Part shown: positions 13,841-29,859 of the stretch, piece after piece
How the letters are laid out: each line of letters opens with the position of its first letter
How positions within the stretch are numbered: position 1 is the first letter of the stretch
Notes under the pieces: generated by a model
Told to the model about the DNA's origin: nothing
Seen by the model: only the letters and a program-made list of their open reading frames with translations
The model's database searches: none
From: an uncultured Candidatus Saccharibacteria bacterium
Lineage (GTDB): Bacteria; Patescibacteriota; CPR2; UBA1875; CAIMLA01
Assembly (NCBI GenBank): GCA_964594415.1
Contig: CAZQLQ010000006.1
Coordinates: 1-54,140 of the forward strand
Length of the DNA: 54,140 nucleotides
Direction of reading: 5' to 3'
Translations under genes and position numbers: made by a program

Positions 13841-15742
13841 TTATTTTTTGTTTTTACCGTTTCCGTTGCCGCCCTTTTTCTCGATCGTTACAACAGGCTC
13901 TTCTTCCTCTTCAGGTTTTTGTACCCAGAAAAGATACCCGCCTAGTGCTAGAAGGAAAATTAAAGCGATGATCCCCCAGGTAGGGAATTCTTTTTCGTCG
14001 CTTTCATTGTCCTCTCCGTCTATAGGAGCAGTGGTATCGGTTGTACTGTCAGCTTTTACTTCTCCAGTTACCTCAGTCGTATCCCCTTCGCTGGCATTAA
14101 CAACCTCACTTGTTGAAGCACTGCCAGAATAATAAGAATAAGAGTAAGTAACAGGTTTTGCCGCAGGAACAGAAATATAAACAGGCATTGTTGTGGTTTC
14201 ATTCCCAGCTGCATCAACAACAATAATCTGATATGAATAGGTCTTCCCCTTTAATACTGTACCGTCCTCAAAATAATTTACTTTTCCTGGATTAAAAGTA
14301 ACAGTTTCTGAACCTGACTTCCTGATTATTTTTATGTGATCAAAAGTCGCAGCGTCTGGATTTGTCCAACTGATTATGACGCTATTGCTAGTTTGTGAAT
14401 ACCTAATTACTAAATTGTTAGCTGCACTAGGCGCCTTGGTATCAATAGTTAGCTCTTCATCGTAAGTAGCTTTGTTCCCATAGACGTCTTCCGTGTCCAA
14501 AACTACGTCATGCAGTCCTTCTTCCAAAACATCAGCGATTTCAATAGTCCAAGTATTACCATTTATTGTAGCTTCGCCACCTATATCCTCACCGTCAATA
14601 GTAATCCACAGTGTAGCTTCCGGATCATCAATAGTTCCTGAAAGAATTGGGCTTGTACTATTAACAGCCTTGGTGACCAAAGCTGCTTTAGGAGCCGTAT
14701 CGTCAATTTTTATCGTTTGAATCTTTGAACTTTTTCCGATTATTTTTGAAGCGTCTATGTCGAATAATATATAGCTTATCTCATAGATTCCACCTTTTAT
14801 AATGTTCATTTCCTCAAAGACTATTTCTAAACCGTTTTTTATTTCTTCTTTTTCTGAAGAAAAATCTTCTGGGTTTTCTGGATATCCGATTACCAAAACG
14901 CTTGCATCGGTGATAGCAAGATCAGCTAGCTCTTCGCTGGTCGCAAGCAACTCATCAGCCTCATCACCATCAATCATTATATCTGCAGGATTGATAGCTG
15001 CTTTATCTTTTCTGGAAATTAGAGTATAAATCTTTGCCTCATCGTTACTGACATCATCATAAAGATTGCCTTTGATAGTTACCGTATCATCAAAAGATTC
15101 AGTAGCCCCATATATGGCTTCGGGAGTGGTTCCCGTAACGTCTAGGCTAGTTTCCGCAATTGTGATAACTTGAGAAACAAGGCTTTGTCCAATTTTTACA
15201 AAACCCTCTTCTACGTCATCTAAATCGGGACCAGAATATACATAATACGAGACACTATATACACCTTTTTTTGCAAAGGTTAATTTGCCTGAGTCTAGGT
15301 AGCCAAGGCCTTCTATGTCATCTTTCTTTGAATCTAACGAAAATCCATCGTCATTACCAAAAGCAATAACTAGGTCGTCAGAATCTACCAAAGCTTTTTG
15401 TTCGCTGTCTGATGATAAAACCTCTACCCCATCAGCTTCTAGATTTGTCGAGTCAATTGCAACAGGATTGGAAGGAACAGTCACATCCTTAATAACTCCA
15501 TAAATCCTAGCATCGTTTTCCTCAACATCCTCAAAAACCGTTCCCTGAACTTTCACTCCGAATTCAAATTCGGTATTGAGCCCTTGAATCAAACTGTTTC
15601 CCTCAATTGATGGAGTTACAGTCAAATTCGTCGTTGTTATAGGGGCCGAAGCATAAGCGCTACCGACACCTAGAAATGCTAATTGCATAACCAAAAGAAC
15701 ATTTGTAGCAATAGCAATTTTTCGCATTATCCCTTTTAACAT
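13841..15742 (-). CDS. Surface protein: signal peptide, duplicated acidic domain, Ig-like, FN3, S/T linker, C-terminal TM
   Basis: DDTAP..SPILSGTIDD (Ig-like), SWTNP...YSYQIIVVDAAGN (FN3), TM FPTWGIIALIFLLALGGYLFW. Confidence 0.85.
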   Translation of the reverse strand: MLKGIMRKIAIATNVLLVMQLAFLGVGSAYASAPITTTNLTVTPSIEGNSLIQGLNTEFEFGVKVQGTVFEDVEENDARIYGVIKDVTVPSNPVAIDSTNLEADGVEVLSSDSEQKALVDSDDLVIAFGNDDGFSLDSKKDDIEGLGYLDSGKLTFAKKGVYSVSYYVYSGPDLDDVEEGFVKIGQSLVSQVITIAETSLDVTGTTPEAIYGATESFDDTVTIKGNLYDDVSNDEAKIYTLISRKDKAAINPADIMIDGDEADELLATSEELADLAITDASVLVIGYPENPEDFSSEKEEIKNGLEIVFEEMNIIKGGIYEISYILFDIDASKIIGKSSKIQTIKIDDTAPKAALVTKAVNSTSPILSGTIDDPEATLWITIDGEDIGGEATINGNTWTIEIADVLEEGLHDVVLDTEDVYGNKATYDEELTIDTKAPSAANNLVIRYSQTSNSVIISWTNPDAATFDHIKIIRKSGSETVTFNPGKVNYFEDGTVLKGKTYSYQIIVVDAAGNETTTMPVYISVPAAKPVTYSYSYYSGSASTSEVVNASEGDTTEVTGEVKADSTTDTTAPIDGEDNESDEKEFPTWGIIALIFLLALGGYLFWVQKPEEEEEPVVTIEKKGGNGNGKNKK

Positions 15743-15967
15743 TTTTCCTCCTTTTATCTTTGAATCCTTAAGTTATTCTGAGAAAAGTTGAAGAATCTTT
15801 GAAATACTTCAATAAATCCAGTATAACTTTTTTTATAAACTTTCTAATACTAATAGACAATTAATGATTTGTTTTGTTTTTATTATTTATTTATTTCGGA
15901 AATAGACAAACTAAAAACCGAACACCCTCCCTCCAAGTTGTATATTTTTTGACAATAAAAACTTCGA

Positions 15968-16068
15968 GGAACTGTGATCGGTTTCACCACTTGCTATTTC
16001 CCATAGGCACTTGTGAACAACCGAGTCCAACAACAGTATCGCACCCATAAGTCAAAGCAATCACTTCC
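15968..16068 (-). ncRNA. Candidate c-di-GMP-II-like riboswitch (variant), leader of the 633-aa surface protein
   Basis: P1 ggaa-gtga/tcac-ttcc, P2 tgct/agca, TGA/GGA K-turn-like element, P3, loop tcggt..ttcac complementary to 3' gtgaa-accga. Confidence 0.55.
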
Positions 16069-16168
16069 TTATATAGATATATAGATTTGTGATTAAAATT
16101 TGTTTTTGTTTTGCTCAGGTTTTGTTTTTATTTCTGTACCCCTTGTTTCCAAAAGGTTTGTAAAATTG

Positions 16169-16196
16169 ATTATAACAACATTACAGATTATGTCAA
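16169..16196 (-). promoter_or_regulatory. Sigma70 promoter upstream of leader A
   Basis: TTGACA-16-(TG)TATAAT. Confidence 0.7.
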
Positions 16197-16264
16197 CATT
16201 CAAAACCAACTATATTTATAGAAACTGCTATCAGCTTAAACAAAAATCGGTTGGGCGAAAAGAA

Positions 16265-16432
16265 CTAGTCCTTTTTAAAAAACTTTGTTTTTGCCGTACT
16301 ATAAACTTCCCCGCCTTTCTTATAAGCCTTTCTTGGAACAGTAGAAACAGAGGAAAGCAGATTCTTTGCCTTATAGACAACAAACCTAACAGACTCTTTT
16401 CTTGATCTGTTTTCAGATGATTTTCTATCCAT
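16265..16432 (-). CDS. Putative 55-aa basic peptide (below the ORF-track cutoff)
   Basis: AAGGAGG SD, ATG, MDRKSSENRSRK...KFFKKD. Confidence 0.4.
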   Translation of the reverse strand: MDRKSSENRSRKESVRFVVYKAKNLLSSVSTVPRKAYKKGGEVYSTAKTKFFKKD

Positions 16433-16612
16433 AGGTGCCTCCTTCTTTGTTAGTTTGCTTGCTTTTATTTTACCAAGTAGCTGATAAATAACAACTAGAC
16501 AAAATTTTGTTTATTTCGTATCAGTTTTAAATACTTTTATTTTTCTAACGCAGTGTGAAGTTCTCAAGATTAATAGTTCTCGTAATCACTCAATCGGTAA
16601 TCTCTATTTTAA

Positions 16613-16632
16613 AAGGGGCCTTACGGCCCCTT
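16613..16632 (-). terminator. GC-rich hairpin after the InlB-repeat gene
   Basis: aaggggcc-gtaa-ggcccctt followed by tt. Confidence 0.7.
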
Positions 16633-16638
16633 AAGTTT

Positions 16639-18837
16639 TTATTTCTTGTTCTCTTCTTCATCTGTAAACAACCAGTAGATTGCTGTAAGAATCAGTATTG
16701 CCAATGGAACAATCGCCCAATACCATTTACAGAATATAGTGTCTTCATACCCGTCGTGTAGATATTTATGAATCAACCAAGCTGCTAAACCAAACACTAC
16801 AGGCCAGGCATATAGAAGTTTAGCTTTTCTTTCCTTGTTGTGTTCATATCCATAGTATACAGAAGTACCAGCAACAAGGATTAATAGAATAATCCACCAC
16901 CAAGGACAAGCTCCTTTATCTTCTGTAGCCGTACCCTTGACCTCCTCTGCCTTCGTAGTTGTAGTAGTCTGAGGAATTGTTGTAGTAGTTGTGGTGGTAG
17001 TTGTGGTAGCGCTAGTTACACCTGTCGTACCAGCCACTCCAGTAGCAATTACTATTGGAGTAATTGGGGTAGATGGGCTAGTCGTAGGCGTAGTAACTAA
17101 TCTCCACTGAGCAACCAACGTTTTCCCGCCTAATGGCATCGTAGATGGAAATGCCGGAGACCATCCAGTAAATATATAGCCAGGCCTTGTTGGATTTGCT
17201 GGAGCAGAAATACTTGAGCCATAGTCAGCAGTAATTGGAGCAATTTCCGAACCCCCATTTGTGTCGAAGTAGATAGTATATTTGTTCGCTATCCATTTAG
17301 CGTACAGCGTCATATTGCTTTCTACGTCATCGTTAAAGTCCCAGGCGCTTGTAAGCGCCGAGTCAGAATACCAACCGTCAAAAGTGTAGCCTGGTTTTGT
17401 TGGATCTGTTGGCTCTATAATCTCATCTCCATCTTCTACTTGCTGGCTGTCAACAGGAGTTCCACCGTTTGAATTGAATATCACCGTATATGCTTCCTTG
17501 ACCCATTTTGCGTATAGATCGGTCTCGCCTGTTACTCTCATAGTTGAGAAGTTCCATGGTTGCGCAAAAGTATTGTCGTCCAGATACCAGCCAGAAAAAA
17601 CATAGTGATTTCTTGTCGGATCTGTAGGCTTTGTAATCAATTCGTTATATATAACATCCATATCGTCTATATGCGTTCCGCCGTTTGAATGAAAATCAAC
17701 CTCATAAGTATTTATCTGCCACTGCGCGTAAAGAGTGACGTCTTGCGACATTGTTATTTCATCGCCTTCAGAATATGTAGTACCGGTCCCGTCGGCTTTT
17801 GTATTCCAGTCATTAAACGTATAACCGGTTTTATATAGTCCTGCATCATTGCCATAGACTTCAATCTCTGTGCCATAGTCATATGTCCTGTTTGAGTCAG
17901 GAACAAGACCGCCAGTATTTCCATTACCATTATAGGCAAGAATGTACCTATTGAGGCCCCATTTTGCGTATAACGTTGTATTCGCATTTACTACGTCAGT
18001 AGTAAAGTTCCAATCATCAGTACAACAAGCATCCTTGTACCATCCGATAAAGTAATAATTAACTTTTGTTGGATCTGTAGGTTTTGTAATTGTGTTTCCA
18101 TATTGAACATTCGTGATAGGAGATACGCTACTTCCTCCTTTAGAGTCAAAGGTTACAGTATAAGTGGCTTTAGCGGCTGCGTTGACATATATATTATCAA
18201 TGCTATTATAACCATCATTATTTATTGTTCCACTTCCTGCTGCCCTATGATTGCTAGAAATCTGCCATCTTAAAATCACTTTAGCCTGATTGTCTAATGC
18301 TGAAGGGAGTGTAAGATTATTCAATGCCCCGCTGTTGTTCCAGCTTGCATTAGTAATTTGATAATCACTTCCGCTCACCTTTGTCCATGTGCTTCCATTA
18401 TTTAGGCTGTAATCGATATGAAAGTCTCTAGGACCATCATTTTCACTTCTTTGCTTTGATGACAAAGTCAAAGTTTTATAGCCGGTTGTGCTAAACTCAA
18501 TATACCAATAATTAGCGTTATATCCGCTATTGTAGTCCCAATCTTTTGCTGCCGCTGCTTTGTCAGTGCCTGAATCGATACCATTCGAATCATACCTTTC
18601 CCCACTCAAATGATCGCCTTCTAGTTCACTAATTCCAACATTTGCTGCAATACCAACATCCGCATATTTATCCGCTGAACCACTTGGGAAAGTCCAACCG
18701 ACTATTGTAGTTGTCGGAACTACTGCAAACGCTGGTGTAACGCCAAGAAAAAATAAATTTAAGACCAAAAGCGTTGACGTCACCACTGCAAAAATATCTT
18801 GCATCCTTTCTTTTAGATTTTTCGTCCTTACCCTCAT
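16639..18837 (-). CDS. Surface protein with 5 InlB B-repeat (Listeria-Bacteroides repeat) domains, T-rich linker and 3-TM C-terminal anchor
   Basis: Repeats Y-x-V-x-F-x-S-N-GG...P-T-K...F-x-GWY...LYAKW; N-terminal signal peptide. Confidence 0.9.
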   Translation of the reverse strand: MRVRTKNLKERMQDIFAVVTSTLLVLNLFFLGVTPAFAVVPTTTIVGWTFPSGSADKYADVGIAANVGISELEGDHLSGERYDSNGIDSGTDKAAAAKDWDYNSGYNANYWYIEFSTTGYKTLTLSSKQRSENDGPRDFHIDYSLNNGSTWTKVSGSDYQITNASWNNSGALNNLTLPSALDNQAKVILRWQISSNHRAAGSGTINNDGYNSIDNIYVNAAAKATYTVTFDSKGGSSVSPITNVQYGNTITKPTDPTKVNYYFIGWYKDACCTDDWNFTTDVVNANTTLYAKWGLNRYILAYNGNGNTGGLVPDSNRTYDYGTEIEVYGNDAGLYKTGYTFNDWNTKADGTGTTYSEGDEITMSQDVTLYAQWQINTYEVDFHSNGGTHIDDMDVIYNELITKPTDPTRNHYVFSGWYLDDNTFAQPWNFSTMRVTGETDLYAKWVKEAYTVIFNSNGGTPVDSQQVEDGDEIIEPTDPTKPGYTFDGWYSDSALTSAWDFNDDVESNMTLYAKWIANKYTIYFDTNGGSEIAPITADYGSSISAPANPTRPGYIFTGWSPAFPSTMPLGGKTLVAQWRLVTTPTTSPSTPITPIVIATGVAGTTGVTSATTTTTTTTTTIPQTTTTTKAEEVKGTATEDKGACPWWWIILLILVAGTSVYYGYEHNKERKAKLLYAWPVVFGLAAWLIHKYLHDGYEDTIFCKWYWAIVPLAILILTAIYWLFTDEEENKK

Positions 18838-19135
18838 ATATCCCCCTTTCCTTTCCCCTCCTGCTTAATATTCTATAAATCAACTATTATCTATTAAATA
18901 AATAAAATTATTTTGAGATCTTGAAAAAGTGATAGAAAATTCGTGTATATCAAAAAATAACAGAATTTCTGTGCATTCCGCTCCTATATAAGCTCAATAT
19001 TCAGGTTTTTAGTATTTGTGAGAGCTTATGATTCGAAGCAGTCACGATATAAAAAGTATATAATTCCAATGTAAAACATTTTGCTTTTTTGTTTTTATTT
19101 CTGAAACCCTCGACAAATTCCGAAGGATATGGCCT

Positions 19136-19164
19136 GATAATACACCTAAGACCAAAAAAAGTCA
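19136..19164 (-). promoter_or_regulatory. Sigma70 promoter giving a 5' leader of about 290 nt for 16639-18837
   Basis: TTGACT-17-TATTAT. Confidence 0.55.
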
Positions 19165-19179
19165 ATAATAAAGGAAAAA

Positions 19180-19908
19180 TCAATACCCTGGGGTCGGATC
19201 GATCCTTTCAATAAAATCAGCTGAGGTGTCTGAATCGGTCCCCAAATGTTCTCTTTCTAATGAGTGACCTTCATCCACATCAATACATGCCGGGTCAAAT
19301 ATCTCAGTATCGTCTCCATAGCTAATTTGATCCACTATATCGCCTTTATCGTCCCTGAGTATCACCCGATCTCCGCTGTTGCTCATTCGATCATGACTAC
19401 CCGAAAGATTTATCTTTACAACGTTATCTTCTGTTATATTTTCCCAAAAATGCCAAGTATCATTACCATGGGATAAAAGTGCAAAGCCATAAGCCGGTAT
19501 TTCGACATTTGAATTTATAATGCTTGGCCATGAATCGCCCGAAATAGACCATTTTTTCAAGCTTATTGCAACTCCTGTCGGGTTATAGAGTTCAACCCAT
19601 TCATTATCATCCTCCCTTTCAAATCTAGAGCAATCATTATCATTAAAGATTCGGCACCCGGTATCGTAATAAACCTCGTTGATAAGCACTTGCAGCTCTG
19701 GCAATTCATTTTCTCCGGTGGTGATAATGTTATTTGAAATCGTTGCCGTATCAGAGAAGTAACTTCCAGTGGAACCAATAGTAACAGCAGCCGTAATCAA
19801 AATAATATAAAGGCATTTAAAAATATTTTTCAAATTATTTTTAGTAGAGTAACTCATTCTTTTCTTTTGTTTCGCTTTTCTCTTTCTTTTTTGTCTTAAT
19901 TTTTTCAA
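19180..19908 (-). CDS. Lamin-tail-domain protein with SipW-class signal peptide (true start probably 19857)
   Basis: GSTGSYFSD signal motif; LINEVYYD...EWVELYNP...GDRVIL...VDQISYG (LTD). Confidence 0.85.
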   Translation of the reverse strand: MKKLRQKRKRKAKQKKRMSYSTKNNLKNIFKCLYIILITAAVTIGSTGSYFSDTATISNNIITTGENELPELQVLINEVYYDTGCRIFNDNDCSRFEREDDNEWVELYNPTGVAISLKKWSISGDSWPSIINSNVEIPAYGFALLSHGNDTWHFWENITEDNVVKINLSGSHDRMSNSGDRVILRDDKGDIVDQISYGDDTEIFDPACIDVDEGHSLEREHLGTDSDTSADFIERIDPTPGY

Positions 19909-20404
19909 GCTCTTTTTTGATTTTCCCTATTTCTCCATAAATAATAATAAGAGCTGGGATAAGAATAAATAGGACAAGACCCTTTGGCGTCTTTAGGAAT
20001 GATACCGCATTGCCGATATAAGGAACGCTATAAACTACTTTTCCAATTACGTTCTCTTTAATTACTTTTTCTGAGTCAGCAGATTTATTGGCATCACCTT
20101 TGACAATATAAAAGGTTGTATCTCTTTCTTGCTCAATACCTACAATTCTATGAGTAACCGTATCTGTTTCGTTTGATATCTTAAAAGTAATAATGTCGTT
20201 TATGCTATAAACATCCTGCTTTCTGTCCAAAACTACACTGTCCTTGCTGAACTCGGGTTCCATACTTCCAGATCTCACCACAAACATTCTATAACCGCTA
20301 ATTTCAAAAGAAGAAAAAATAACAAGCAATGCCATAATAGCCAATAAAATATAGGCGATAAAGCTTACTGTATTTACTAATATTGAACCCTTTTTAATTG
20401 CCAT
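19841..20404 (-). CDS. sipW: Signal peptidase I, SipW type
   Basis: VRSGSMEP, TVTHRIV (Ser-His type), VKGDAN, GKVVYSVPYIG. Confidence 0.88.
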   Translation of the reverse strand: MAIKKGSILVNTVSFIAYILLAIMALLVIFSSFEISGYRMFVVRSGSMEPEFSKDSVVLDRKQDVYSINDIITFKISNETDTVTHRIVGIEQERDTTFYIVKGDANKSADSEKVIKENVIGKVVYSVPYIGNAVSFLKTPKGLVLFILIPALIIIYGEIGKIKKELEKIKTKKKEKSETKEKNELLY

Positions 20405-20436
20405 TTTGCTGTTTTCTCCTCTTTTATTTTTATTAT

Positions 20437-20468
20437 TATACAGCAGGGTGTTAAGGCCCTGCTGTATA
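20437..20468. other. Strong intergenic hairpin between the tasA-like gene and sipW (no minus-strand U-tract)
   Basis: tatacagcaggg-tgttaagg-ccctgctgtata. Confidence 0.75.
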
Positions 20469-20478
20469 AATACGCGAA

Positions 20479-21411
20479 TTAGGATTTGATATAATCGACA
20501 AGCCCTGTTTCAAACAAATAATCAGCTGGGTGCCAACCGATCATTTGACTACCATTGAAGTCGCTTGACTTTACTAACCATATCTTAGCATTTGAGAAGC
20601 TACCAAGATTTTGATCGAAGGTGATTGTCAGACTTCCTCCACTTGAAACACCAGTATTTAGCAAGACAGATCCTGCACCTGGCCAAGGATCATTATATTT
20701 GATCAGGGAGTAATCTCCGGCTGGCAAACCTGTTGCTGTGAATGTTCCCTTGAAGGTAGAATCCATTACCCCGTAAGATAGGGTTCCCTTGATGCCATCC
20801 TGAATAACATCCCAATTCGGCTCCCCTGTTTTATTCTCCAATACTAGGTTACCGCTTAGCTGCTCACCCATTATCTCAATATTAAACACTAGGGTTTTGT
20901 CCTGATAAGTATTATCAGCGGTATCCTTCATCTTGTAACTTTCAGTAACATACATTACATAATTTTCGGTATTAGTATCAGCAGGAAGCATTCCTAAAAA
21001 CACTTTTGAATTATTAACGCCGTTTAAAGTTACATCGTAGTTATAGATTGCTTGTTTCCAGTAAAAAATGCCGTTCTTTTTGATCTCTACCGATAGACCA
21101 TAAAGTATTTGCGTACTCAAGTTGCCAACATCATTTGGAATAATCACTTTCTTAGTTATGTTGGCGGGATTGCTTCCGTTTGCATTATCTACTTTAAGGT
21201 TGCCGTACTTTACATAGCCCGGCTTCATATCAGTCAAATAGAACGGATTCAAAACGTCACTTCCCTCATCGTTAACTACAATATCCAATGTCCCAGTTGA
21301 CAATGTATTCCCGTTTATTTCAGCCGTGTCGCTAAAAAGTGCTCCGGTTGCACTAATCGACAACGCAGCTACTGAAGCAATAGTAAACAAACTCATTAAA
21401 ATTCGTTTCAT
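20479..21411 (-). CDS. TasA/CalY (camelysin)-like protein with SipW-class signal peptide
   Basis: MKRILMSLFTIASVAALSISATGALFSDTAEINGNTLSTGTLDI, MKPG motif; start refined to the ATG after SD aaaggtgg. Confidence 0.85.
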   Translation of the reverse strand: MKRILMSLFTIASVAALSISATGALFSDTAEINGNTLSTGTLDIVVNDEGSDVLNPFYLTDMKPGYVKYGNLKVDNANGSNPANITKKVIIPNDVGNLSTQILYGLSVEIKKNGIFYWKQAIYNYDVTLNGVNNSKVFLGMLPADTNTENYVMYVTESYKMKDTADNTYQDKTLVFNIEIMGEQLSGNLVLENKTGEPNWDVIQDGIKGTLSYGVMDSTFKGTFTATGLPAGDYSLIKYNDPWPGAGSVLLNTGVSSGGSLTITFDQNLGSFSNAKIWLVKSSDFNGSQMIGWHPADYLFETGLVDYIKS

Positions 21412-21531
21412 ATTACCACCTTTCTTTTTTAAAATTAATAAATCGTTTTTGGCTTCTGTTTCAAAGCTGTCGACCATAGCTTGCCCTCAAAACAAAAACC
21501 GATCAGATTCTCTCCAGATTTAAAATATCTC

Positions 21532-21640
21532 GAGAAAATGTGACCGGTTTCATTTATATCCGTAGAAATAATTACTTACTCCACAAGAACAACTGCAATT
21601 TGCAACCTTACATTCATTGCATCAATTTTTACACATTCTC
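21532..21640 (-). ncRNA. Possible degenerate c-di-GMP-II-like leader of the tasA-like operon
   Basis: TGC-AAT-GA / GGA-GTA-AGTA core and 3' TGAAACCGG, P1 gagaatgtg/cacattttctc; pseudoknot partner poor. Confidence 0.35.
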
Positions 21641-21743
21641 TTTTTTAGTTTTTTAGCTATTTGTATTTTGATGTTATACCTAAAATTTTACCTTGTCAAT
21701 GGCAAAAAATGATGAATTTAGCAAATTTGTATAAACAATTTTC

Positions 21744-22052
21744 TTATTGGCAACTCTCTGGTCTAAAGATAAAAAAAGGGGTGCTGTCTGTAGACAGCAC
21801 CCATATTGGTACACCTATTTTAATTAATCTTTTTACTTGTTTGAATTTTTCTATTTCTTGTTTTTCTTTTTTTATCATATTTACTTTTTTCCTGAAGCTC
21901 CGCTCAACAGGATTGGGGTAATTTGCCACCAGCCTTTTAGGCTGAATCTCTTTAAAGCATTTCCTGCATATTTGGAACCCCTTTTTTGTTGTTTTGATTT
22001 GTTCCCCACAAATCCCGCAATAGTTCTTCATCCTTTTATCCGCTTTAGCCAC
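21744..22052 (-). CDS. Small Zn-finger hypothetical protein
   Basis: CGIC...CRKC; SD aggagggg, GTG start. Confidence 0.5.
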   Translation of the reverse strand: MAKADKRMKNYCGICGEQIKTTKKGFQICRKCFKEIQPKRLVANYPNPVERSFRKKVNMIKKEKQEIEKFKQVKRLIKIGVPIWVLSTDSTPFFIFRPESCQ

Positions 22053-22289
22053 AAAACCCCTCCTTTAAAGGAATAATTTAATGGAAAACGAAAGCCAGTT
22101 CTCCTTTTGTCGGGATTGGTGGGAAATTACAACTATTTTTCCTTGAAGTTTGAGTAGCAAACCAGCGGATAACTGCATAGCGCTTTTTGTCCTTCATATT
22201 GTCACGAAATCTACTTCCCGCTGATTTTATTTCGTTGGCTTCATTATGATACAAAAGACCACCTCAATTCAATTATTTACAGTTTGACA

Positions 22290-22580
22290 TTAGAGTATGA
22301 CTCTTAATACTCTTGGTTCCTCTCCATGCGTACGCTGAACCCCTATTTCTTCATTTATCAAGCTAGCCATACTTGGACTTTTTGGAACCACTGCATTGCA
22401 ATGAGGACACCTACTGTGCTTACTGGGAGATGATTTTGAATTATGACTACGACCACAGTTAGAACATTCAAACCTATAATGCTTCATGAACCCTTTTTCT
22501 AAATCTTTTGCCCAAGACACAATTCCTACTCCTTTTAAATCTAGCGGACACAATACAAAAGCTCTTACCCAGGATACCAA
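22290..22580 (-). CDS. Small Zn-ribbon hypothetical protein
   Basis: CSNC...CPHC. Confidence 0.5.
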   Translation of the reverse strand: MVSWVRAFVLCPLDLKGVGIVSWAKDLEKGFMKHYRFECSNCGRSHNSKSSPSKHSRCPHCNAVVPKSPSMASLINEEIGVQRTHGEEPRVLRVIL

Positions 22581-22670
22581 TCTCTGCCAGTAAGATTCAC
22601 AACATCCCTCCTTAATAAGTAGACTCCGCTATTCGCCCTCCTTTCACCCGAAAACAACAAGTGAGAAATT

Positions 22671-22886
22671 TCAATAATCCAACATTGCATCCTCGATCGG
22701 ACGTAGATCCTTAAACAATTTGGACGCTACAATCGGTGGTTTAACTAGAGCCCTAGACCTAGCTTTTGAAATTGCCTCTTTGATAATCAAAGTACTTGAA
22801 TCAATATAAACTGGGCCTAGATTCAGCGATTTAAGCACTAAATTTAATTGATCAAAAAGTTCTTGATCCAAGGGTATCCCCTCCAA
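22671..22886 (-). CDS. Hypothetical protein
   Basis: 71-aa ORF co-oriented with neighbours; no recognised motif. Confidence 0.35.
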   Translation of the reverse strand: MEGIPLDQELFDQLNLVLKSLNLGPVYIDSSTLIIKEAISKARSRALVKPPIVASKLFKDLRPIEDAMLDY

Positions 22887-23030
22887 CCAGATTCTCTGAG
22901 TAAATAGGACCTAGCCATAATCCCCTTCAAAAAAAAGCATAAGCACCACCCCCTCACTAATTATCAATGTTCAATAAATAAAGCTAACGCTAAATTAAAA
23001 CTAACACTCATGAAAAACCATGTCAATAAA

Positions 23031-23059
23031 AAATAAGCGGGAGGGTGAACCGCTTATTT
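23031..23059 (-). terminator. Terminator after the NTG-repeat operon
   Basis: aaataagcgg-loop-ccgcttattt followed by a T-run on the minus strand. Confidence 0.75.
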
Positions 23060-23086
23060 CTTATCATATATAATGACTAATAACTT

Positions 23087-23986
23087 CTATACGGCCTTAT
23101 GTATCTTTTGCTGATGTCTTACTCTGATTGCATAGAAAGCAAGGTAGGCAATAACAATTTCTGCAATTATTACCTTGTCATACCCTTCGGCAAACCAGCC
23201 TATTCCTGTGCCATAGTGAGCAATCGTATGAACTATCCATGCTAAATATCCAAAAACTGCAGGCCATAAATACCAGAGACCCAAAATACCTTTTGGATTT
23301 TCTGTTCTAGATAGATAAAATCCGTATCCTCCTAGAAGAACTGCTAGTGCAATAACTATTGCGATACACCAAGGACAATTTTGCTCATCCCCTATCAGAA
23401 CATTTCCAGTATCAGCTCCTTTAATATCCTCGCTTCCTAAAGCGATTATCTCATTATCAGTACTTTCATTGTCTGACTCAGCAAGAGTTTGCTCAACTCC
23501 GTCAGATCTGTATGTTGCTACAAAACTACCGGAATACCCGCTAGTATGGATATTCACGCCACCGCCACTAGTTGTAATCTTTATCGTGCCACCCGAGGGA
23601 GAAGTAATTACAGTAGTTTTGGGGTTTGTGGTAGTTGTAGTAGTAGTTTCATTGTCATTGTCGCCGTCTTCGCTATTTATAGAACAATAATTGACTTCGT
23701 TAGTAACACTTAGAGAAACGTCAATATCTCCGGTTTTTACGCTGCCATCACCGGTATTTCCGTTTGCAGTATTTTCTCCAGTACTTATCTTAAGATCGAT
23801 TTCATTATCAATTGCTGCGTTATTTTCAACCTCTATCTTAGTTCCATTTTCTACAGAAATAATTGTTTTATTTACTGAGTTATAGCCTGTAATCTCATTT
23901 GAGATGTCAGCCGCCAGAGCAACCCCCCCTACCAGAAATACAGCAAAAATTGGGATAATTAATATTTTTTTACGTTTTGTTTTCAT
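23087..23986 (-). CDS. NTG-repeat protein 3: signal peptide, 1 repeat, T-rich linker, 3-TM anchor
   Basis: ISNEITGYNSVN...STGENTANGNTGDGSVKTGD; C-terminus homologous to that of 16639-18837. Confidence 0.8.
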   Translation of the reverse strand: MKTKRKKILIIPIFAVFLVGGVALAADISNEITGYNSVNKTIISVENGTKIEVENNAAIDNEIDLKISTGENTANGNTGDGSVKTGDIDVSLSVTNEVNYCSINSEDGDNDNETTTTTTTNPKTTVITSPSGGTIKITTSGGGVNIHTSGYSGSFVATYRSDGVEQTLAESDNESTDNEIIALGSEDIKGADTGNVLIGDEQNCPWCIAIVIALAVLLGGYGFYLSRTENPKGILGLWYLWPAVFGYLAWIVHTIAHYGTGIGWFAEGYDKVIIAEIVIAYLAFYAIRVRHQQKIHKAV

Positions 23987-24044
23987 GGCAGCCTCCTTTC
24001 TAATAGGTGACCCTCACTACGGCGCCAACTTTTTATGACCCATT

Positions 24045-26213
24045 TTATGCTCCACTTTTCTTTTTTTTGCCAAAATAAACTGAAAGAAACGAAAGATAAA
24101 CTATTGTCAGAAACGCCAGAATTTGCATCTTGAATTTACCCAGCATAGACAAAAAGTTGTTAGAATCGTTTGTCTGACTAATCGTATTAACACCAAGAAC
24201 GCTACTTCCTCCATCCTGGTTGCTGTTGCTTGATGCCAGAAGAACTGCATTGTTATCATTATCAGGTAATATATTTTCTAACGCTATTGATCCGTCTACA
24301 GGAACCTTCACACCTGCCGAAGTGAATATTTTAAACACACTTGAGTCAACTGGTTCAGTAGAAATATGGATTTCTGTAGGAATTTGGGTAATCACTTGCG
24401 TTGTTGCAGTAGTTTGCGCTACCTCTTTTTCTACATCTATGTTTCCATCCCAGTCCCCAAAGATATTTACTACCAGGAATACGAACTTTTTAGCCACTAC
24501 ATTAACATTCATAATGTTTGCGATGTTGGCAAGTACATTAGAGTCACCTGTTGTTATATTCCCGTTTCCGGTATTATAGTCTGCCTTGTTATCGCCGGTG
24601 TTTGCAGTGATTGAAATATTATTAGACAAAACTCCTTCATTTTCGTTGTCTATATCAATTAAGCTTGATGCATCTACCGTTGCCGTATTTTCTGACTCGG
24701 CTCCGGTATTTTCGTTAGAAGCTGCAAGGTTGCAAACATTTTCACTATCACAACCGTTATTTACTATCCCTAGATAAGGAGACAGGAGATTTTCTCCTGA
24801 CCATTGACCCGCTACATTTACTATGAAGAAAAATATAGTATCTCCTATCAAGTTTTGATTTAAAAGGTTGCTTACACTCAATTCCGTGTTTACGTCACCA
24901 GTTTGGACCGAACCACTACCAGTATTATATCCGCTTGTGTTATCACCTGTATTATTAGCAATCTTAATATTATTTAAGACTTCTGCATTATTATCGTTAT
25001 CGATATCTAGTGCATTATTTACGTTCGCTGAAGATATATTACTCGAATCAAATCCTGTGTTTTCATTACCTGCAGTTATCGCACCACCGCTATTATTTGA
25101 ATTAATCGAATTCCCTGCCAGGCTTTTTGGTATCAATAAGTCCCCTAGCCAATCCCCAAAAATGTTTAATACGCCAACAACCCCAAGATCAGAAGCAGTA
25201 AAGGAGCTGTTAATGAAATTTAACAAGTTCAGCGATACATTAGAGTCACCAGTAGTTACGTTGCCGTCGCCTGTATTGTAACTGGCGTCATTATCGCCTG
25301 TATTTGATTCGATATTAAAATTATTTGAAGCGTTCGCATCATTATCGTTATTCACAAACGTTGAGTTGTTAGTATTGATAATGGCCGAGTTAGTAGATTC
25401 GGCACCTGTATTTTCGTTTTCTGCACCAACCCTACTACCAGTCAAGGTATATTTTTCACCAGAATTAGGGTCAACGAGATAATTACCAAATAGATTCCCT
25501 GCAACATTTTCAAAAAGGAGTTTTATCTCTCCACCAGGGAGTGCAACAAAAGCGGTATTAATCATATTTAGAATAGAGAGAATTATATTTGAATCCCCTG
25601 TCTTCACGCTTCCGCTACCCGTATTGTAGTTGGCATCGTTATCTCCGGTATTTGAAGAAACAACAAGGCCATTATTTACTTCCGCCTGATTATCGTTATT
25701 TACCACTAGTTTGCTAGCATCCAATACAACCGCCTCGTTCACTGAACCCGCTCCAGTATTTTCGTTACTAACGCCAGACTCTGTTGATTCGGATCCGCTT
25801 CCTTCAGCTAAAGTAGGAATAGTTTGTCCCGACTCAGCTCCCAGATCTCCCGCAACCTCTTCATTTAGAGGACAGGACTCTGATGGATTAGCGGTAGACG
25901 AACCAGTATCTGCCGTAGGAGCCGTATTTTCGGTAGGATTGCTTGTACCCTGGGTATCGCCGGTAGTTCCCGAATTTGTTTCCTCGCTCCCAGGCAAAGC
26001 AGGAGCTGTTGGCGAGACTGGAGTCTCAGGTGCTGTCGGAGCTACTATGACTTTCGGGGTAGTAGTTGGCGTAGTCGGTAATGCTGGACGGACTGGAGCC
26101 GCAGGCAATTGAGGAGCCTCCGAGAAGGCAAGACCTAAAGGAGCCACAACTAACAAAACAGTCACAAAAGCTGTGCCTAATCTTTTTAATCTTATTAATA
26201 ATCTTGTATTCAT
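24045..26213 (-). CDS. NTG-repeat protein 2: signal peptide, P/T-rich region, 4 repeats, C-terminal TM
   Basis: Four copies of NENTG-x-x-S-x-N...NTGDN-x-x-x-YNTG-x-G-x-V-x-TGD. Confidence 0.85.
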   Translation of the reverse strand: MNTRLLIRLKRLGTAFVTVLLVVAPLGLAFSEAPQLPAAPVRPALPTTPTTTPKVIVAPTAPETPVSPTAPALPGSEETNSGTTGDTQGTSNPTENTAPTADTGSSTANPSESCPLNEEVAGDLGAESGQTIPTLAEGSGSESTESGVSNENTGAGSVNEAVVLDASKLVVNNDNQAEVNNGLVVSSNTGDNDANYNTGSGSVKTGDSNIILSILNMINTAFVALPGGEIKLLFENVAGNLFGNYLVDPNSGEKYTLTGSRVGAENENTGAESTNSAIINTNNSTFVNNDNDANASNNFNIESNTGDNDASYNTGDGNVTTGDSNVSLNLLNFINSSFTASDLGVVGVLNIFGDWLGDLLIPKSLAGNSINSNNSGGAITAGNENTGFDSSNISSANVNNALDIDNDNNAEVLNNIKIANNTGDNTSGYNTGSGSVQTGDVNTELSVSNLLNQNLIGDTIFFFIVNVAGQWSGENLLSPYLGIVNNGCDSENVCNLAASNENTGAESENTATVDASSLIDIDNENEGVLSNNISITANTGDNKADYNTGNGNITTGDSNVLANIANIMNVNVVAKKFVFLVVNIFGDWDGNIDVEKEVAQTTATTQVITQIPTEIHISTEPVDSSVFKIFTSAGVKVPVDGSIALENILPDNDNNAVLLASSNSNQDGGSSVLGVNTISQTNDSNNFLSMLGKFKMQILAFLTIVYLSFLSVYFGKKKKSGA

Positions 26214-26240
26214 TTAGACCCCCAATTAATTTATCTGGCG

Positions 26241-26268
26241 CTGGTAAGGCTCAATTGAGCCTTACCAG
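26241..26268. repeat. Perfect 28-bp palindrome between NTG genes 1 and 2
   Basis: ctggtaaggctcaattgagccttaccag. Confidence 0.9.
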
Positions 26269-26281
26269 ACCTAATCAAATA

Positions 26282-26872
26282 TTAGTTTACCTCAACATCA
26301 CTTGTGTTTACGGTTGTACTAAAATCGATAGTTACAGAGGAATCGCCTGTTTCGACGCTTCCATCACCAGTGTTGTAACTCGCTCTATTGCCGCCAGTTG
26401 TTGCTTCTATGTAAGCATCATTTGATACGCAAGCCTTATTCTCTACTTCTATCTCGAGACGATTGTTTTCGTCAATCTTAGCGATATTTGTAGACTCTGC
26501 TCCTGTAGTTTCATTGCTGATACTATAAGAAGCGCCGCAAGTGCCACCACATCCAATGCTTTCAACATCGATTTCTGTGCCGTTAGCTTCGTTTGTAGCG
26601 GTAATGCTTACGTCTGCATCACCAGTCATCACTTCGCCGTCCCCAGTGTTTTTATTTGCTTTATTATAACCGGTAGCAACTGTGCCATTAACACCATTAT
26701 GTAGTCTAACGCTGTTCTCAACTTCGACTTCTGTCTTGTTGTTTTGGTCAACCTTAGCTACGTTTAATGAACCGTATCCGGTCTCTTCGTTACCTATAGA
26801 TGCCATTGCAAAGCCTGATAGTAAGCTTACTCCAACCCCGGCAATAGCGATTTTTTTAGCTAGATCTCTCAT
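26282..26872 (-). CDS. NTG-repeat protein 1: signal peptide plus 2 repeats, no anchor
   Basis: Start refined to MRDLAKK (SD ggagg); two repeats linked by CGGTCG. Confidence 0.85.
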   Translation of the reverse strand: MRDLAKKIAIAGVGVSLLSGFAMASIGNEETGYGSLNVAKVDQNNKTEVEVENSVRLHNGVNGTVATGYNKANKNTGDGEVMTGDADVSITATNEANGTEIDVESIGCGGTCGASYSISNETTGAESTNIAKIDENNRLEIEVENKACVSNDAYIEATTGGNRASYNTGDGSVETGDSSVTIDFSTTVNTSDVEVN

Positions 26873-27034
26873 TTCATTCACCTCCCTTCTTAAATAACTT
26901 TACCTAATCAGTTAGGAGAAATAAGATGAAGGATAATTCCTCAAAATAGTTCGCCCAACTGCCGACCGTACATTTTAGCGGAGATTTTAAAAACCGACCA
27001 TATATCTAGACGTGGTGTTACAGAGTAACTGTTA

Positions 27035-27157
27035 GAAACAAGTCGGTTTCACTATTTGCGCTTCTCTATTTTGGAGTCCTCAGTGCTAGATCTTGTGACC
27101 AATCCCTTCTGAAAAGTTTGAGTTACATAAGCCCTGAGTCAAAGGCGCCCTTATTCC
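27035..27157 (-). ncRNA. Candidate c-di-GMP-II-like riboswitch (variant), leader of the NTG operon
   Basis: P1 ggaataag/cttgtttc, P2 gcgc/gcgc, TGA/GGA, P3 ctcag/ctgag, loop TTGG-TCAC complementary to 3' GTGA-AA-CCGA. Confidence 0.65.
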
Positions 27158-27225
27158 ATATTATTAAATTTTCGAATTTCGGCTTTCATTAGTATTTTTG
27201 TTTTGGTTTTTGTCTCCTTACGAAC

Positions 27226-27255
27226 ATTATAGATACAAAAAAATCCCTATGTCAA
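27226..27255 (-). promoter_or_regulatory. Sigma70 promoter upstream of leader B
   Basis: TTGACA-18-TATAAT. Confidence 0.65.
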
Positions 27256-27357
27256 GGACTTTCTTGTGAGCCCATACAAATTAAGCACAAAATCATTTTT
27301 TTTCAGCTAAAAATCAACTAAAAATAAGCCGTCAAAATTCATAGTTTTGATTTGTTT

Positions 27358-29859
27358 TTATAGATCCAGGGATGGCTCTTCTGCATCAATTTCCTGTTCT
27401 TCAACACAAGCCACCGAGGCAATATAATCATTTTCATCTATTCGCATAATTCGAACGCCCTGGGTGGCTCTGGATATTTTTGAAATTGACTTGAGAGGCA
27501 CGCGAATTACTTGCCCCTTGCTAGAAATTACCATTACGTCTTCGCCAACTGAGGTAATCACCCGAACATCTACCATTTTTCCTGTTTTTGTGGTTACTAC
27601 TCCTGCTTTAATGCCCACTCCGCCCCTGTTATGGCTAGTGAATTGTTTTAGCTCAGTTCTTTTGCCATATCCGTTTTCCATCATAACCAAAAGCTCTGCG
27701 TCATTTATAACAATATCCATTCCAACTACTTTATCGTTTTTCTTGAGCCTAATTCCACGAACGCCCCTCGCGCTTCTTCCCATTGGTCGAACGTTTTTCT
27801 CGCTGAATCTGATCGCCTGAGCAAGGCTTGTAGCCATAATTATTTCATCATTTCCAGAGGTCTGCTTGACCCACCTCAGCTCATCACCCTTATCAAGTCC
27901 AATCGCTATAATTCCGGTCTTACGAATATTTTCAAACGCAGCAACCGAGGTTTTCTTCACCGTTCCCAATGTTGTTGCCATCATTAAAAATTTATCTTTT
28001 TCAAACTTCTCAATATTAATAATCGAAGTTACTTTCTCTTCAGGAGCAAGCTGAACCAAGTTTACGACTGGCTGACCTTTTGCTGTTCTTGAAACCATCG
28101 GAATCTCCCAAATCTTGATTTGGAAAACTCTACCAAGATTCGTAAACAACAAGAGATTGTCATGATTTCTCGTTTGAATTAGTTGCTGAACGACATCTTC
28201 CTCTTTGATCCCTCCTGTAACCCCTTTTCCGCCCCTTCCTTGAGATTTATAGGTAGAACTAAGCATCCTCTTGATATAACCACCATTTGTGAGGGTTACT
28301 ATCACATCTTCGTTTGGAATCAAATCTTCTTCGTTGAATTTATTTAAAGAATGACCGACTAGTTTTGTTCTTCTTTCGTCGCCATATTTTTCTTTGATCT
28401 CAATCAATTCGTCTTTGACTACTGCAAGTATCTTTTCTTCATGTGCAAGTAAATCCTCAAGATAGGCTATCAACTTCTGAAGTTCATTATATTCATCCTC
28501 TATCTTTTTTCTTTCAAGCCCAGCCAGGGTTCTCAGTTGCATTGCGAGAATTGCAAGAACCTGAGGCTCCGAAAAACCAAATCTGCTCATTAAGTTTTGC
28601 TTGGCTTCTTCCTGACTCGAGCTCTCCTTGATTGTCTGAATTACTTCGTCAATATTTTCAAGCGCCTTGATAAGCCCCTCTAAAATATGTGCGCGGTCTT
28701 TAGCTTTTCTAAGTTCAAACTCGCTTCTTCTTGTTACAATAATCTTCCTATGCTTAATAAACTCCTCAAGGATCATTTTAAGATTAAGAAGTCTTGGCTG
28801 AATACCGTCTACAAGAGCAATCATATTAAAGCCAAAAGACGTTTGCATCGACGTCAACTTGTAAAGCTGGTTTAAAATCTTATTCGCATAAGCATCTTTT
28901 TTGAGCTCAATAATTATTCTGACCGAAGTCTTCCTATCCGATTCGTCCCTAATATCCGAAATACCAACGACTTTCTTCTCTTTTACAAGTTCTGCAATTT
29001 TGGTAATCAAACTAGCTTTATTTACCTGATAAGGCAATTCGGAAATGAGGATATGCTGGTCTCCGCGTTTTCCCTCTTCTATTTCGGCTACTGCACGCAT
29101 TATAATACTTCCTCGCCCGCTCGCATAAGCAAGTTTGATCTGCTCGGGATCAAATATTTGTCCTCCTGTAGGAAAATCAGGACCAACAATATGCTTCATC
29201 AGATCGTCTATAGTCGCATTTTCGTTGTCTATAAGCTCAATCAAGCCGTTTACTAGCTCAGATAAGTTATGGGGCGGTATATTTGTCGCCATACCAACTG
29301 CAATCCCCATTTGGCCGTTCAAAAGCAAAACAGGAAGGCGAGTAGGGAGAATCTTTGGCTCCTTAAGAGAACCGTCATAGTTGGGTACGAAGTCAATAGT
29401 ATCCTTATCTATATCAGATAGCATTTCTTCAGCGGCCTTGGTCATTCTGGCTTCGGTATAACGCATAGCTGCAGCAGAATCTCCGTCCATCGACCCAAAG
29501 TTACCTTGTCCATCAACTAGAGGGTAGCGCATTGACCAGTATTGCGCCATACGAACCATAGATTCATAAACAGCTGAATCCCCATGCGGGTGATACTTAC
29601 CCAAAACTTCACCGACAATTAACGCAGATTTACGAAATTTGGTATTTGAACGAATCCCAAGAACGCTCATTGCGTATAGAATACGGCGATGAACCGGCTT
29701 CAAACCATCGCGAACATCAGGTAGAGCTCTCGATACTATAACGCTCATAGCGTAGTCAAGAAAGCTCTCTCGCATCTCAAGGCTTATTTCACGATCTTTT
29801 ATATATCCTATCTCTTCACCAATTGTTAATTGGTTTTCACTTCTTTCTTTTTTTGCCAT
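27358..29859 (-). CDS. gyrA: DNA gyrase subunit A
   Basis: [14 protein letters not shown] catalytic Tyr, GyrA-box QGRGGKG, CTD blades. Confidence 0.98.

Follow-up and report, generated by a model that had tools for sequence, protein, structure and literature searches.

A mobile C-terminal domain with three predicted membrane helices on unrelated surface proteins of Patescibacteria

Patescibacteria live attached to other cells and are themselves tiny and wall-poor; how they hold adhesins and fibres on the cell is, to our knowledge, largely unknown. This question is raised by a stretch of 54,140 nucleotides (hereafter the window), contig C6 (CAZQLQ010000006.1) of the 863-kb, 21-contig genome of an uncultured Candidatus Saccharibacteria bacterium (GCA_964594415.1; GTDB lineage Bacteria; Patescibacteriota; CPR2; UBA1875; CAIMLA01), in which two otherwise unrelated surface proteins, the InlB-repeat protein A and the Asn/Thr/Gly-rich protein B, end in similar tails. 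A preliminary description, made without database searches, took these tails for a lineage-specific sorting or processing signal analogous to LPXTG or PEP-CTERM. The tail is a real, mobile C-terminal domain without annotation in Pfam or NCBIfam, and probably adds a further, previously unannotated C-terminal anchoring module to those of surface proteins; we infer, with a probability of roughly 0.6, that it is a retained three-helix polytopic membrane anchor with an extracytoplasmic Cys/His site, and not a disposable signal.

A shared and mobile C-terminal domain

Proteins A and B are alike only over their last ~100 residues, where they align by BLASTP with an E-value of 2e-10. In protein A, a signal peptide is followed by an N-terminal domain of ~200 amino acids (aa), five InlB B-repeats (Pfam Flg_new, E 2.9e-81), a Thr-rich linker, and the tail with its three transmembrane (TM) helices; in protein B, which has no match in Pfam or NCBIfam, the tail is preceded by a signal peptide, one Asn/Thr/Gly-rich repeat unit, and a linker. 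The order of elements in the module is (E/D)(V/I)KG, C-P-W-W-W, TM1, a basic loop, Y-x-W-P, TM2, H-x3-H, C, TM3, and a basic end, represented by EVKG632-635, C644-P-W-W-W, W678-P679, H690, H694, and C703 in tail A, and by DIKG187-190, C204-P-W-C207, W241-P242, H253, and H257 in tail B. These are the only two copies in the genome.

A profile built from three tails and run against 1.84 billion representative proteins (E ≤ 1e-3) returned 62 matches, comprising 61 true cluster representatives and one repetitive false positive (P0031). The tail-bearing proteins span 140-1547 aa, and in all 61 true members the match ends no more than ~25 residues from the C terminus. In an alignment of 49 tails, conservation is highest at the helix ends; it reaches 0.94 at the first Cys and 0.82, 0.92, 0.88, and 0.73 along the P-W-W-W that follows, 0.98 at the Pro of W-P, 0.96 and 0.76 at the first and second His, 0.88 at the second Cys, and 0.79 at the Gly of VKG. 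Thus, the homology first suspected between the two tails is confirmed by the pairwise alignment, the common motifs and the 61 true homologs, and the Cys and His residues that had been singled out are among the best conserved positions.

The tail is limited to Patescibacteria, as expected of a lineage-specific element; 8 of the 32 class genomes carry it, as do 12 (about 3%) of the 401 sampled across the phylum, at one or two copies per genome. All six matches outside the class are proteins of one type, ~300 aa long (open frames of 297-357 aa). A narrower tail alignment led to four genome loci and ten metagenome loci, and a homolog search bounded by word and length limits gave a single relative of tail B, P0002, at 64% identity. 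The tail offers a searchable marker for a set of Patescibacteria surface proteins.

At least a dozen types of N-terminal domain precede the tail. Pfam domains on the 62 proteins of the alignment include Flg_new (13), TSP_3 (10), Bact_surface_Ig-like (10), Big_13 (7), Big_3_3 (6), MBG_2 (5), and HYR (4), along with cadherin-like domains, fn3, and Peptidase_M73. Protein A itself is a mosaic. Over its first ~213 residues it shares 41% identity with P0019, the tails of the two being only 43% identical; the tail of A shares 64% identity with the tail of P0004, a TasA-like protein of 297 aa, with homology that begins exactly at EVKG and none before it. In the tail tree, A is sister to P0004 (support 100/97) and stands apart from the other InlB-repeat proteins. 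The diversity of Pfam domains, this mosaic, and the tail tree all bear out the proposal that the tail is shuffled among unrelated N-terminal domains. The ~300-aa TasA-like proteins are scattered over the whole tree, which, together with the six matches outside the class, suggests that they were the original hosts of the tail, and that fusions to adhesins, protein A among them, arose afterwards.

Two sets of small proteins have unusual tails. Proteins of ~200 aa with hardly any ectodomain (L021 8283..8933, L022 7815..8465, L023 7773..8402, and L049 11659..12252) carry a divergent form that reads C-x-x-W-W, then H-x3-H-x-H, then FLCFNYW. Additionally, six proteins of 163-184 aa (P0041, P0042, P0046, P0051, P0052, and P0055) have C-P-(Y/F)-C, or C-K-F-C in the case of P0055. 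In such proteins the tail may act on its own.

Predicted fold, topology, and conserved residues

An AlphaFold2 model of tail B, computed with the 49 aligned tails, consists of three helices (positions 24-46, 60-76, and 88-117 of the 118-aa query), with a predicted local distance difference test score (pLDDT) of 86 and a predicted template modeling score (pTM) of 0.72; a Foldseek comparison of the tail model with the PDB gave nothing below E = 1. In the model of a full-length, 307-aa relative from locus L049, a beta domain (pLDDT ~80) is joined by a disordered linker to the tail (~88).

An N-terminal hydrophobic, signal-like segment is present in 49 of the 56 full-length members, which places the ectodomain outside with TM1 running inward. 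The mean number of lysines plus arginines, counted in the 22 of 62 sequences for which a crude hydrophobicity scan gave three segments, is 3.95 in loop 1, 1.09 in loop 2, and 3.82 in the C-terminal end, and the basic columns of the 49-tail profile fall at the same places. From this orientation and charge pattern, both Cys positions and the H-x3-H with which TM2 ends are predicted to lie on the outer face of the membrane.

The anchor would be assembled as follows. After export of the ectodomain by Sec, TM1 would insert from outside to inside, the short Lys/Arg-rich loop 1 would stay in the cytoplasm, TM2 would return to the outside, and TM3 would bring the short basic end back inside. The three helices would then pack into a bundle with an outer rim formed by the first Cys ahead of TM1, the H-x3-H where TM2 ends, and the second Cys, the last lying either before TM3 or, in the C-x-x-C variant represented by protein B, one helical turn past the first Cys. 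A disordered Thr/Glu/Pro-rich stalk would join the module, at (E/D)(V/I)KG, to interchangeable ectodomains and so tether them to the cytoplasmic membrane.

The rim is probably a metal site or a disulfide-stabilized cap that locks the bundle. All eight C-x-x-C variants, including protein B, lack the Cys before TM3, and all members without C-x-x-C have a later Cys; this complementarity is suggestive of a two-Cys site, although not strongly so. VKOR is present in only one and DsbB in two of the 32 class genomes, which makes catalyzed disulfide formation unlikely, and neither occurs in the window genome or in the four genomes whose tail matches are best, so the evidence leans toward a metal site. 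Modification of the Cys as in a lipoprotein is ruled out by the absence of Lgt (PF01790) from all 32 class genomes (it is present in 10 control genomes); moreover, the Cys of the tail precedes a helix at the C-terminal end of the protein, whereas a lipobox Cys follows an N-terminal signal helix. For mutagenesis and metal analysis, the conserved rim offers an easy target.

The VKG motif marks the start of the module. In 41 of 62 proteins, a [VI][KR]G occurs no more than 35 residues upstream of the first Cys (chance expectation ~0.015-0.03 per protein). Its distance from the Cys is 3 to 25 residues with a mode of 5, and the linker often contains a second copy of it. All four anchored proteins of the window's gene island had been said to share a motif before the membrane helix; this is true of three, namely A (EVKG), B (DIKG), and a 633-aa single-TM protein with GEVKA ~25 residues before its helix, whereas the SVLG of a 722-aa protein is only a looser V-x-G match, of which VLG is kept in two relatives (L049). 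Single-TM orthologs of the 633-aa protein in six loci keep (E/D)VK(A/S/G) ~20-25 residues before the helix, and a 407-aa protein encoded at C1:12935..14158 has it too, so that the motif extends more widely among the membrane-anchored surface proteins of this lineage. It may serve as a shedding site, provide a cross-linking lysine, or be an element of the stalk, and this boundary motif, which single-helix anchors also have, may mark an undescribed processing or cross-linking step.

TasA-like fibre operons and the docking alternative

Reading along the minus strand of the window, gyrB and gyrA are followed by a three-gene operon for Asn/Thr/Gly-rich secreted proteins (26282..26881, the 722-aa protein, and, as final gene, protein B), two small open reading frames (ORFs), the genes for a TasA-like protein, a SipW-type peptidase, and a lamin-tail-domain (LTD) protein, protein A, and the 633-aa Big/fn3 protein (Table 1). 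The TasA-like gene opens an operon that closes with protein A. Within it, the LTD protein scores 20.8 bits against TIGR04088 cognate_SipW (cut-off 19) and has a TapA-like place, in a gene order shared with L048-L051 and L042.

Table 1. Features of the window, and small ORFs next to tail genes at other loci (coordinates refer to the window unless a locus is named)
Feature	Coordinates	Strand	Basis or remark
Protein A, 732 aa	16639..18837	-	ORF
Tail module of A, residues 632-732	16642..16944	-	Tail-profile match, 155 and 129 bits
Protein B, 299 aa	23087..23986	-	ORF
Tail module of B, residues 186-299	23090..23431	-	C-P-W-C variant without Cys before TM3; BLASTP, tail profile
TasA-like secreted protein, 332 aa	20479..21477	-	BLASTP cluster with TasA-like genes of L048-L051
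SipW-type (archaeal-type) signal peptidase I	19841..20404	-	TIGR02228, 98 bits (cut-off 51.85)
Secreted LTD protein with SipW-type signal peptide	19180..19908	-	Pfam LTD, E 2.3e-13
633-aa surface protein (Big_13, fn3), one C-terminal TM	13841..15742	-	ORF and Pfam
722-aa repeat protein, one C-terminal TM, SVLG upstream of TM	24045..26213	-	ORF; middle gene of the protein B operon
Free-standing three-TM protein, 145 aa	13104..13541	-	Syntenic in seven loci
Small two-TM ORFs	L041 10530..10790; L042 1543..1800; L044 2025..2324; L045 1413..1682; L047 10448..10750

A tail gene follows tasA-like and sipW genes in ten loci (the window, L042, L048, L049, L050, L051, L060, L061, L063, and L064), and the place between sipW and the tail gene can be taken by an LTD or a tasA-like gene, the LTD gene being found there in the window, L042, and L048-L051. 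In all of the ten except the window, the tail protein belongs to the ~300-aa family with a small beta domain; in the window, protein A holds this operon slot with a swapped ectodomain. When the 307-aa relative from L049 was compared with the PDB by Foldseek, the TasA fibre (8aur_A, E 9.9e-6) ranked first and a TasA-like archaeal bundling pilus (7ueg_A, E 1.2e-4) came next; a hidden Markov model (HMM) of the ~300-aa family found no match among PDB sequences, so that the TasA likeness came from the fold comparison. By hhalign, the family matches the TasA-like proteins of these operons (in an alignment that includes the TasA-like protein of the window) with 98.4% probability, and one member of the type matches Peptidase_M73 (PF12389) at 1.1e-7. 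The TasA/camelysin fold is thus recognized in the ~300-aa relatives, and the comparison does not apply to A or B. The family lacks the 18-column N-terminal segment 'AYFSD...GNTF' that follows the signal helix of the operon TasA-like proteins.

In Bacillus subtilis, TasA polymerizes by way of a donor strand at its N terminus (residues 28-38), and the first strand may come from TapA (PMC9674648); TasA homologs have already been noted in Patescibacteria, and the anchoring of such fibres is unclear (PMC9245690). Because it combines a TasA fold that lacks the donor-strand segment with the membrane anchor of the tail, the anchored ~300-aa subunit, which could accept a strand and not donate one, is a plausible candidate for the membrane-fixed base of a fibre. 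The commonest and probably original host of the tail would be this TasA-like subunit encoded after tasA-like and sipW genes, and it could form the acceptor end of a TasA-like fibre; in the window, the InlB-repeat adhesin A would have taken over both the operon slot and the tail, and the repeat protein B would carry a second copy. What fixes TasA-type fibres to the cell would, on this hypothesis, be a TasA-fold subunit without a donor strand on a three-helix anchor.

Like the tapA-sipW-tasA system of B. subtilis (PMC9674648, PMC9245690), the arrangement combines a TasA-like subunit with a SipW-type peptidase and with an accessory protein whose N-terminal signal or strand is TasA-like, and it has an extra component thought to fix the fibre to the cell. 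It differs in that the candidate cell-proximal part here is a TasA-fold domain without donor strand, fused to a three-helix anchor, whereas TapA has another fold and no such anchor, and in that an InlB-repeat protein occupies the slot in the window.

The spacing of genes in the window also departs from that of its relatives: a 342-nt gap (18838..19179), containing a promoter-like site (19165..19137, 10 of 12 matches), separates the LTD gene from protein A, and in L048-L051 only a few bases lie between the LTD gene and the tail gene. The gap fits with replacement of an original anchored TasA-like gene.

Further membrane proteins recur near tail genes. Directly 3' of the tail gene in five loci (Table 1), and not in the window, lies an ORF of 85-100 aa with two TM helices and a conserved 'RYS..N' loop. 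A three-TM family of ~140 aa, represented in the window by the free-standing 145-aa protein, is syntenic there and in L021, L022, L041, L042, L047, and L049; it has a basic loop, a 'PY..(Y/F)AK..(F/L)W' motif, and an 'RKEKWLK' end, and lacks the Cys and His residues of the tail. Against the tail profile it gave a weak hhalign match (74% probability, E 2.7e-5, 87 columns), so the 145-aa protein is possibly a distant relative of the tail. The three-gene operon type of protein B (a small secreted protein, a long single-TM protein, and a tail-anchored protein) also occurs in a distant family of the phylum (L065, on G341:C24, 160..4070), and in L049 (744..4822) relatives of it adjoin gyrA and have single-TM anchors in place of the tail.

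Such neighbors raise an alternative that we regard as unlikely: the tail could be a docking or oligomerization unit that builds surface structures, for example by pairing with the syntenic three-TM protein or with other tails as a platform for the fibre, its Cys/His rim binding a partner or a metal shared between subunits. The position of the tail gene as the last of the fibre-type operons at ten loci, and as the last of the three-gene repeat operon in both the window and L065, speaks for docking, as do the synteny of the three-TM family and its likeness to the tail, and the two-TM ORF beside five tail genes. However, the match found by hhalign is a weak one between membrane helices and may reflect composition, and those large adhesin-type members that adjoin gyrA have no fibre genes nearby.

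Sorting signals, cognate enzymes, and known domains

Like the tripartite signals (LPXTG/sortase, PEP-CTERM/exosortase, PGF-CTERM/archaeosortase, and GlyGly-CTERM/rhombosortase), the tail forms the very C-terminal end of secreted surface proteins, is a module exchanged among ectodomains, and has a short conserved motif before its first membrane helix and a basic end. It differs in having ~100 aa instead of 25-35, three predicted helices with conserved polar residues instead of one generic helix, and one or two copies per genome instead of many; no cognate enzyme was found for it, and sortase is present with or without the tail. We know of no tripartite signal with conserved polar residues or a confident fold such as those of TM2 and TM3 in the tail. 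Size, copy number, conservation pattern, and enzyme distribution all speak against the sorting signal of LPXTG or PEP-CTERM type that was first proposed.

None of three processing enzymes compared tracks the tail among the 32 class genomes: sortase was found in 30, a SipW-type peptidase in three, and Lgt in none. Sortase (PF04203), with no specific association with the eight tail-bearing genomes, was rejected as cognate enzyme; the window genome encodes one (C4:11028..11420) and one candidate substrate (C5:2025..3500), whose LPTSG, followed by a TM helix and a basic end, is the only LPXTG-like C-terminal signal in the genome. The tails have no LPXTG pentapeptide before a hydrophobic segment, and carry (E/D)(V/I)KG and CPWWW instead. 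SipW was likewise rejected, since the three genomes with a peptidase above the cut-off (G000, G011, and G026) comprise only two of the eight with tails and one, G011, without. Around about 20 tail loci, the only recurrent neighbors are gyrB-gyrA, the tasA-like, sipW, and LTD genes, the small two-TM ORF, and the free-standing 145-aa three-TM protein, with no protease other than SipW and no transpeptidase among them. Neither was a multi-pass protease-like gene kept beside these loci; the exosortase, archaeosortase, and rhombosortase families were not searched.

That the tail is a true sorting or processing signal in another form, with an unidentified enzyme cutting or transferring the ectodomain at (E/D)VKG or at the invariant Cys, and with the three-helix part serving as recognition and retention element before being left behind or degraded, seems to us rather improbable. 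It has to be taken seriously mainly because the VKG motif extends to single-TM anchored proteins, in the orthologs of the 633-aa protein and in the 407-aa protein; additionally, the motif occurs near the Cys far more often than by chance and coincides exactly with the module boundary, and the membrane-edge Cys is 94% conserved. Set against this are the one or two substrates per genome, the lack of a conserved protease or transpeptidase beside the loci, the enzyme distributions given above, including a sortase with an ordinary LPTSG candidate substrate of its own, the variable spacing between motif and TM helix, and the conserved polar residues and confident fold of TM2 and TM3, which are not known from the tripartite signals.

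Several observations weigh on the other side, against a retained anchor with a Cys/His site. A juxtamembrane (E/D)VKG and a near-invariant Cys at the membrane edge are also what would be expected of a processing site, and the occurrence of the same motif before single-TM anchors suggests a function independent of the three-helix bundle. The relocation of the second Cys represents only one or two evolutionary events in the tail tree and is weak evidence for a two-Cys site, and the proximity of the Cys and His residues follows from the predicted topology alone. With DsbB and VKOR missing from most tail-bearing genomes, a catalyzed disulfide becomes less likely, and a metal site is not thereby proven. 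Finally, the window genome has no anchored TasA-like subunit, so for A or B themselves the role of fibre base would be conjecture.

A further variant, which we consider very unlikely, is that the module is a self-contained sorting device of a new type, in which the near-invariant Cys and His residues of the outer face act chemically and the ectodomain is released, or passed to a wall or lipid acceptor, without a sortase-like enzyme. At the X-Cys bond, such chemistry could take the form of an N-to-S acyl shift or a thioester; metal-assisted cleavage close to (E/D)VKG would be another example. The (E/D)VK(G/A/S) site would also be used in single-TM anchored proteins of these bacteria.

In Pfam, NCBIfam, and the PDB the tail has no characterized counterpart, in line with the preliminary description, which called it novel. 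With matches listed up to E = 10, neither tail reached the cut-off of any Pfam or NCBIfam model, and no PDB fold was matched. MerC (PF03203) scored 19.6 bits with tail A only, under its gathering score of 27.6 bits. The invert_tail model (NF058595, 'lipo-invert putative C-terminal anchoring domain') is of similar length (113 positions) and also describes putative C-terminal anchoring, and its weak match spans the region from the tail motif to TM1; however, it gave 15.4 bits with tail A, nothing with tail B, and 15.7 bits in the genome search (cut-off 37), and it also matched 14 of 14 control genomes at E ≤ 10, none above the cut-off, with no true member available for comparison. FILTED (NF052597), found in Patescibacteria too, is likewise a C-terminal module of ~110 residues with three hydrophobic helices on large secreted proteins, but lacks CPWWW, WP, HxxxH, and the second Cys, and scored at best ~24 bits (E 1.9e-6) with two of 49 tails (cut-off 40). 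The FILTED model found no match in the window genome. A true FILTED member in genome G036 (a 687-aa frame) has a tail consisting of a TM helix, an acidic/basic loop, and two further TM helices, and reached 14.6% probability against the tail profile by hhalign. A literature search for 'FILTED domain' and 'lipo-invert' found no paper.

That the similarity is a compositional artefact of hydrophobic segments, or that a described domain was missed by default thresholds, is scarcely credible and largely refuted, as these three sub-threshold matches, the only signs in its favor, all fall under curated cut-offs, the true FILTED member barely resembles the tail profile, invariant non-hydrophobic C, P, and H residues recur in 61 proteins, and Foldseek found no counterpart in the PDB.

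The remaining features of the region concern its small genes and transcription signals. Between protein B and the tasA-like gene lie the two small ORFs (21744..22052 and 22290..22580, minus strand; 102 and 96 aa), which contain paired C-x-x-C motifs (zinc-ribbon-like), match no family, and are putative as genes. A scan of 15700..27400 with Rfam (E ≤ 0.1) gave no match. Two perfect TTGACA/TATAAT promoter matches were found on the minus strand, at 27255..27226, upstream of the leader of the repeat-protein operon, and at 16196..16169, upstream of that of the 633-aa gene. Strong terminator-like hairpins are located at 21802..21779 (minus strand), between the small ORFs 3' of protein B and the tasA-like gene, and at 16613..16632 (AAGGGGCC...GGCCCCTT), directly past the stop codon of protein A.

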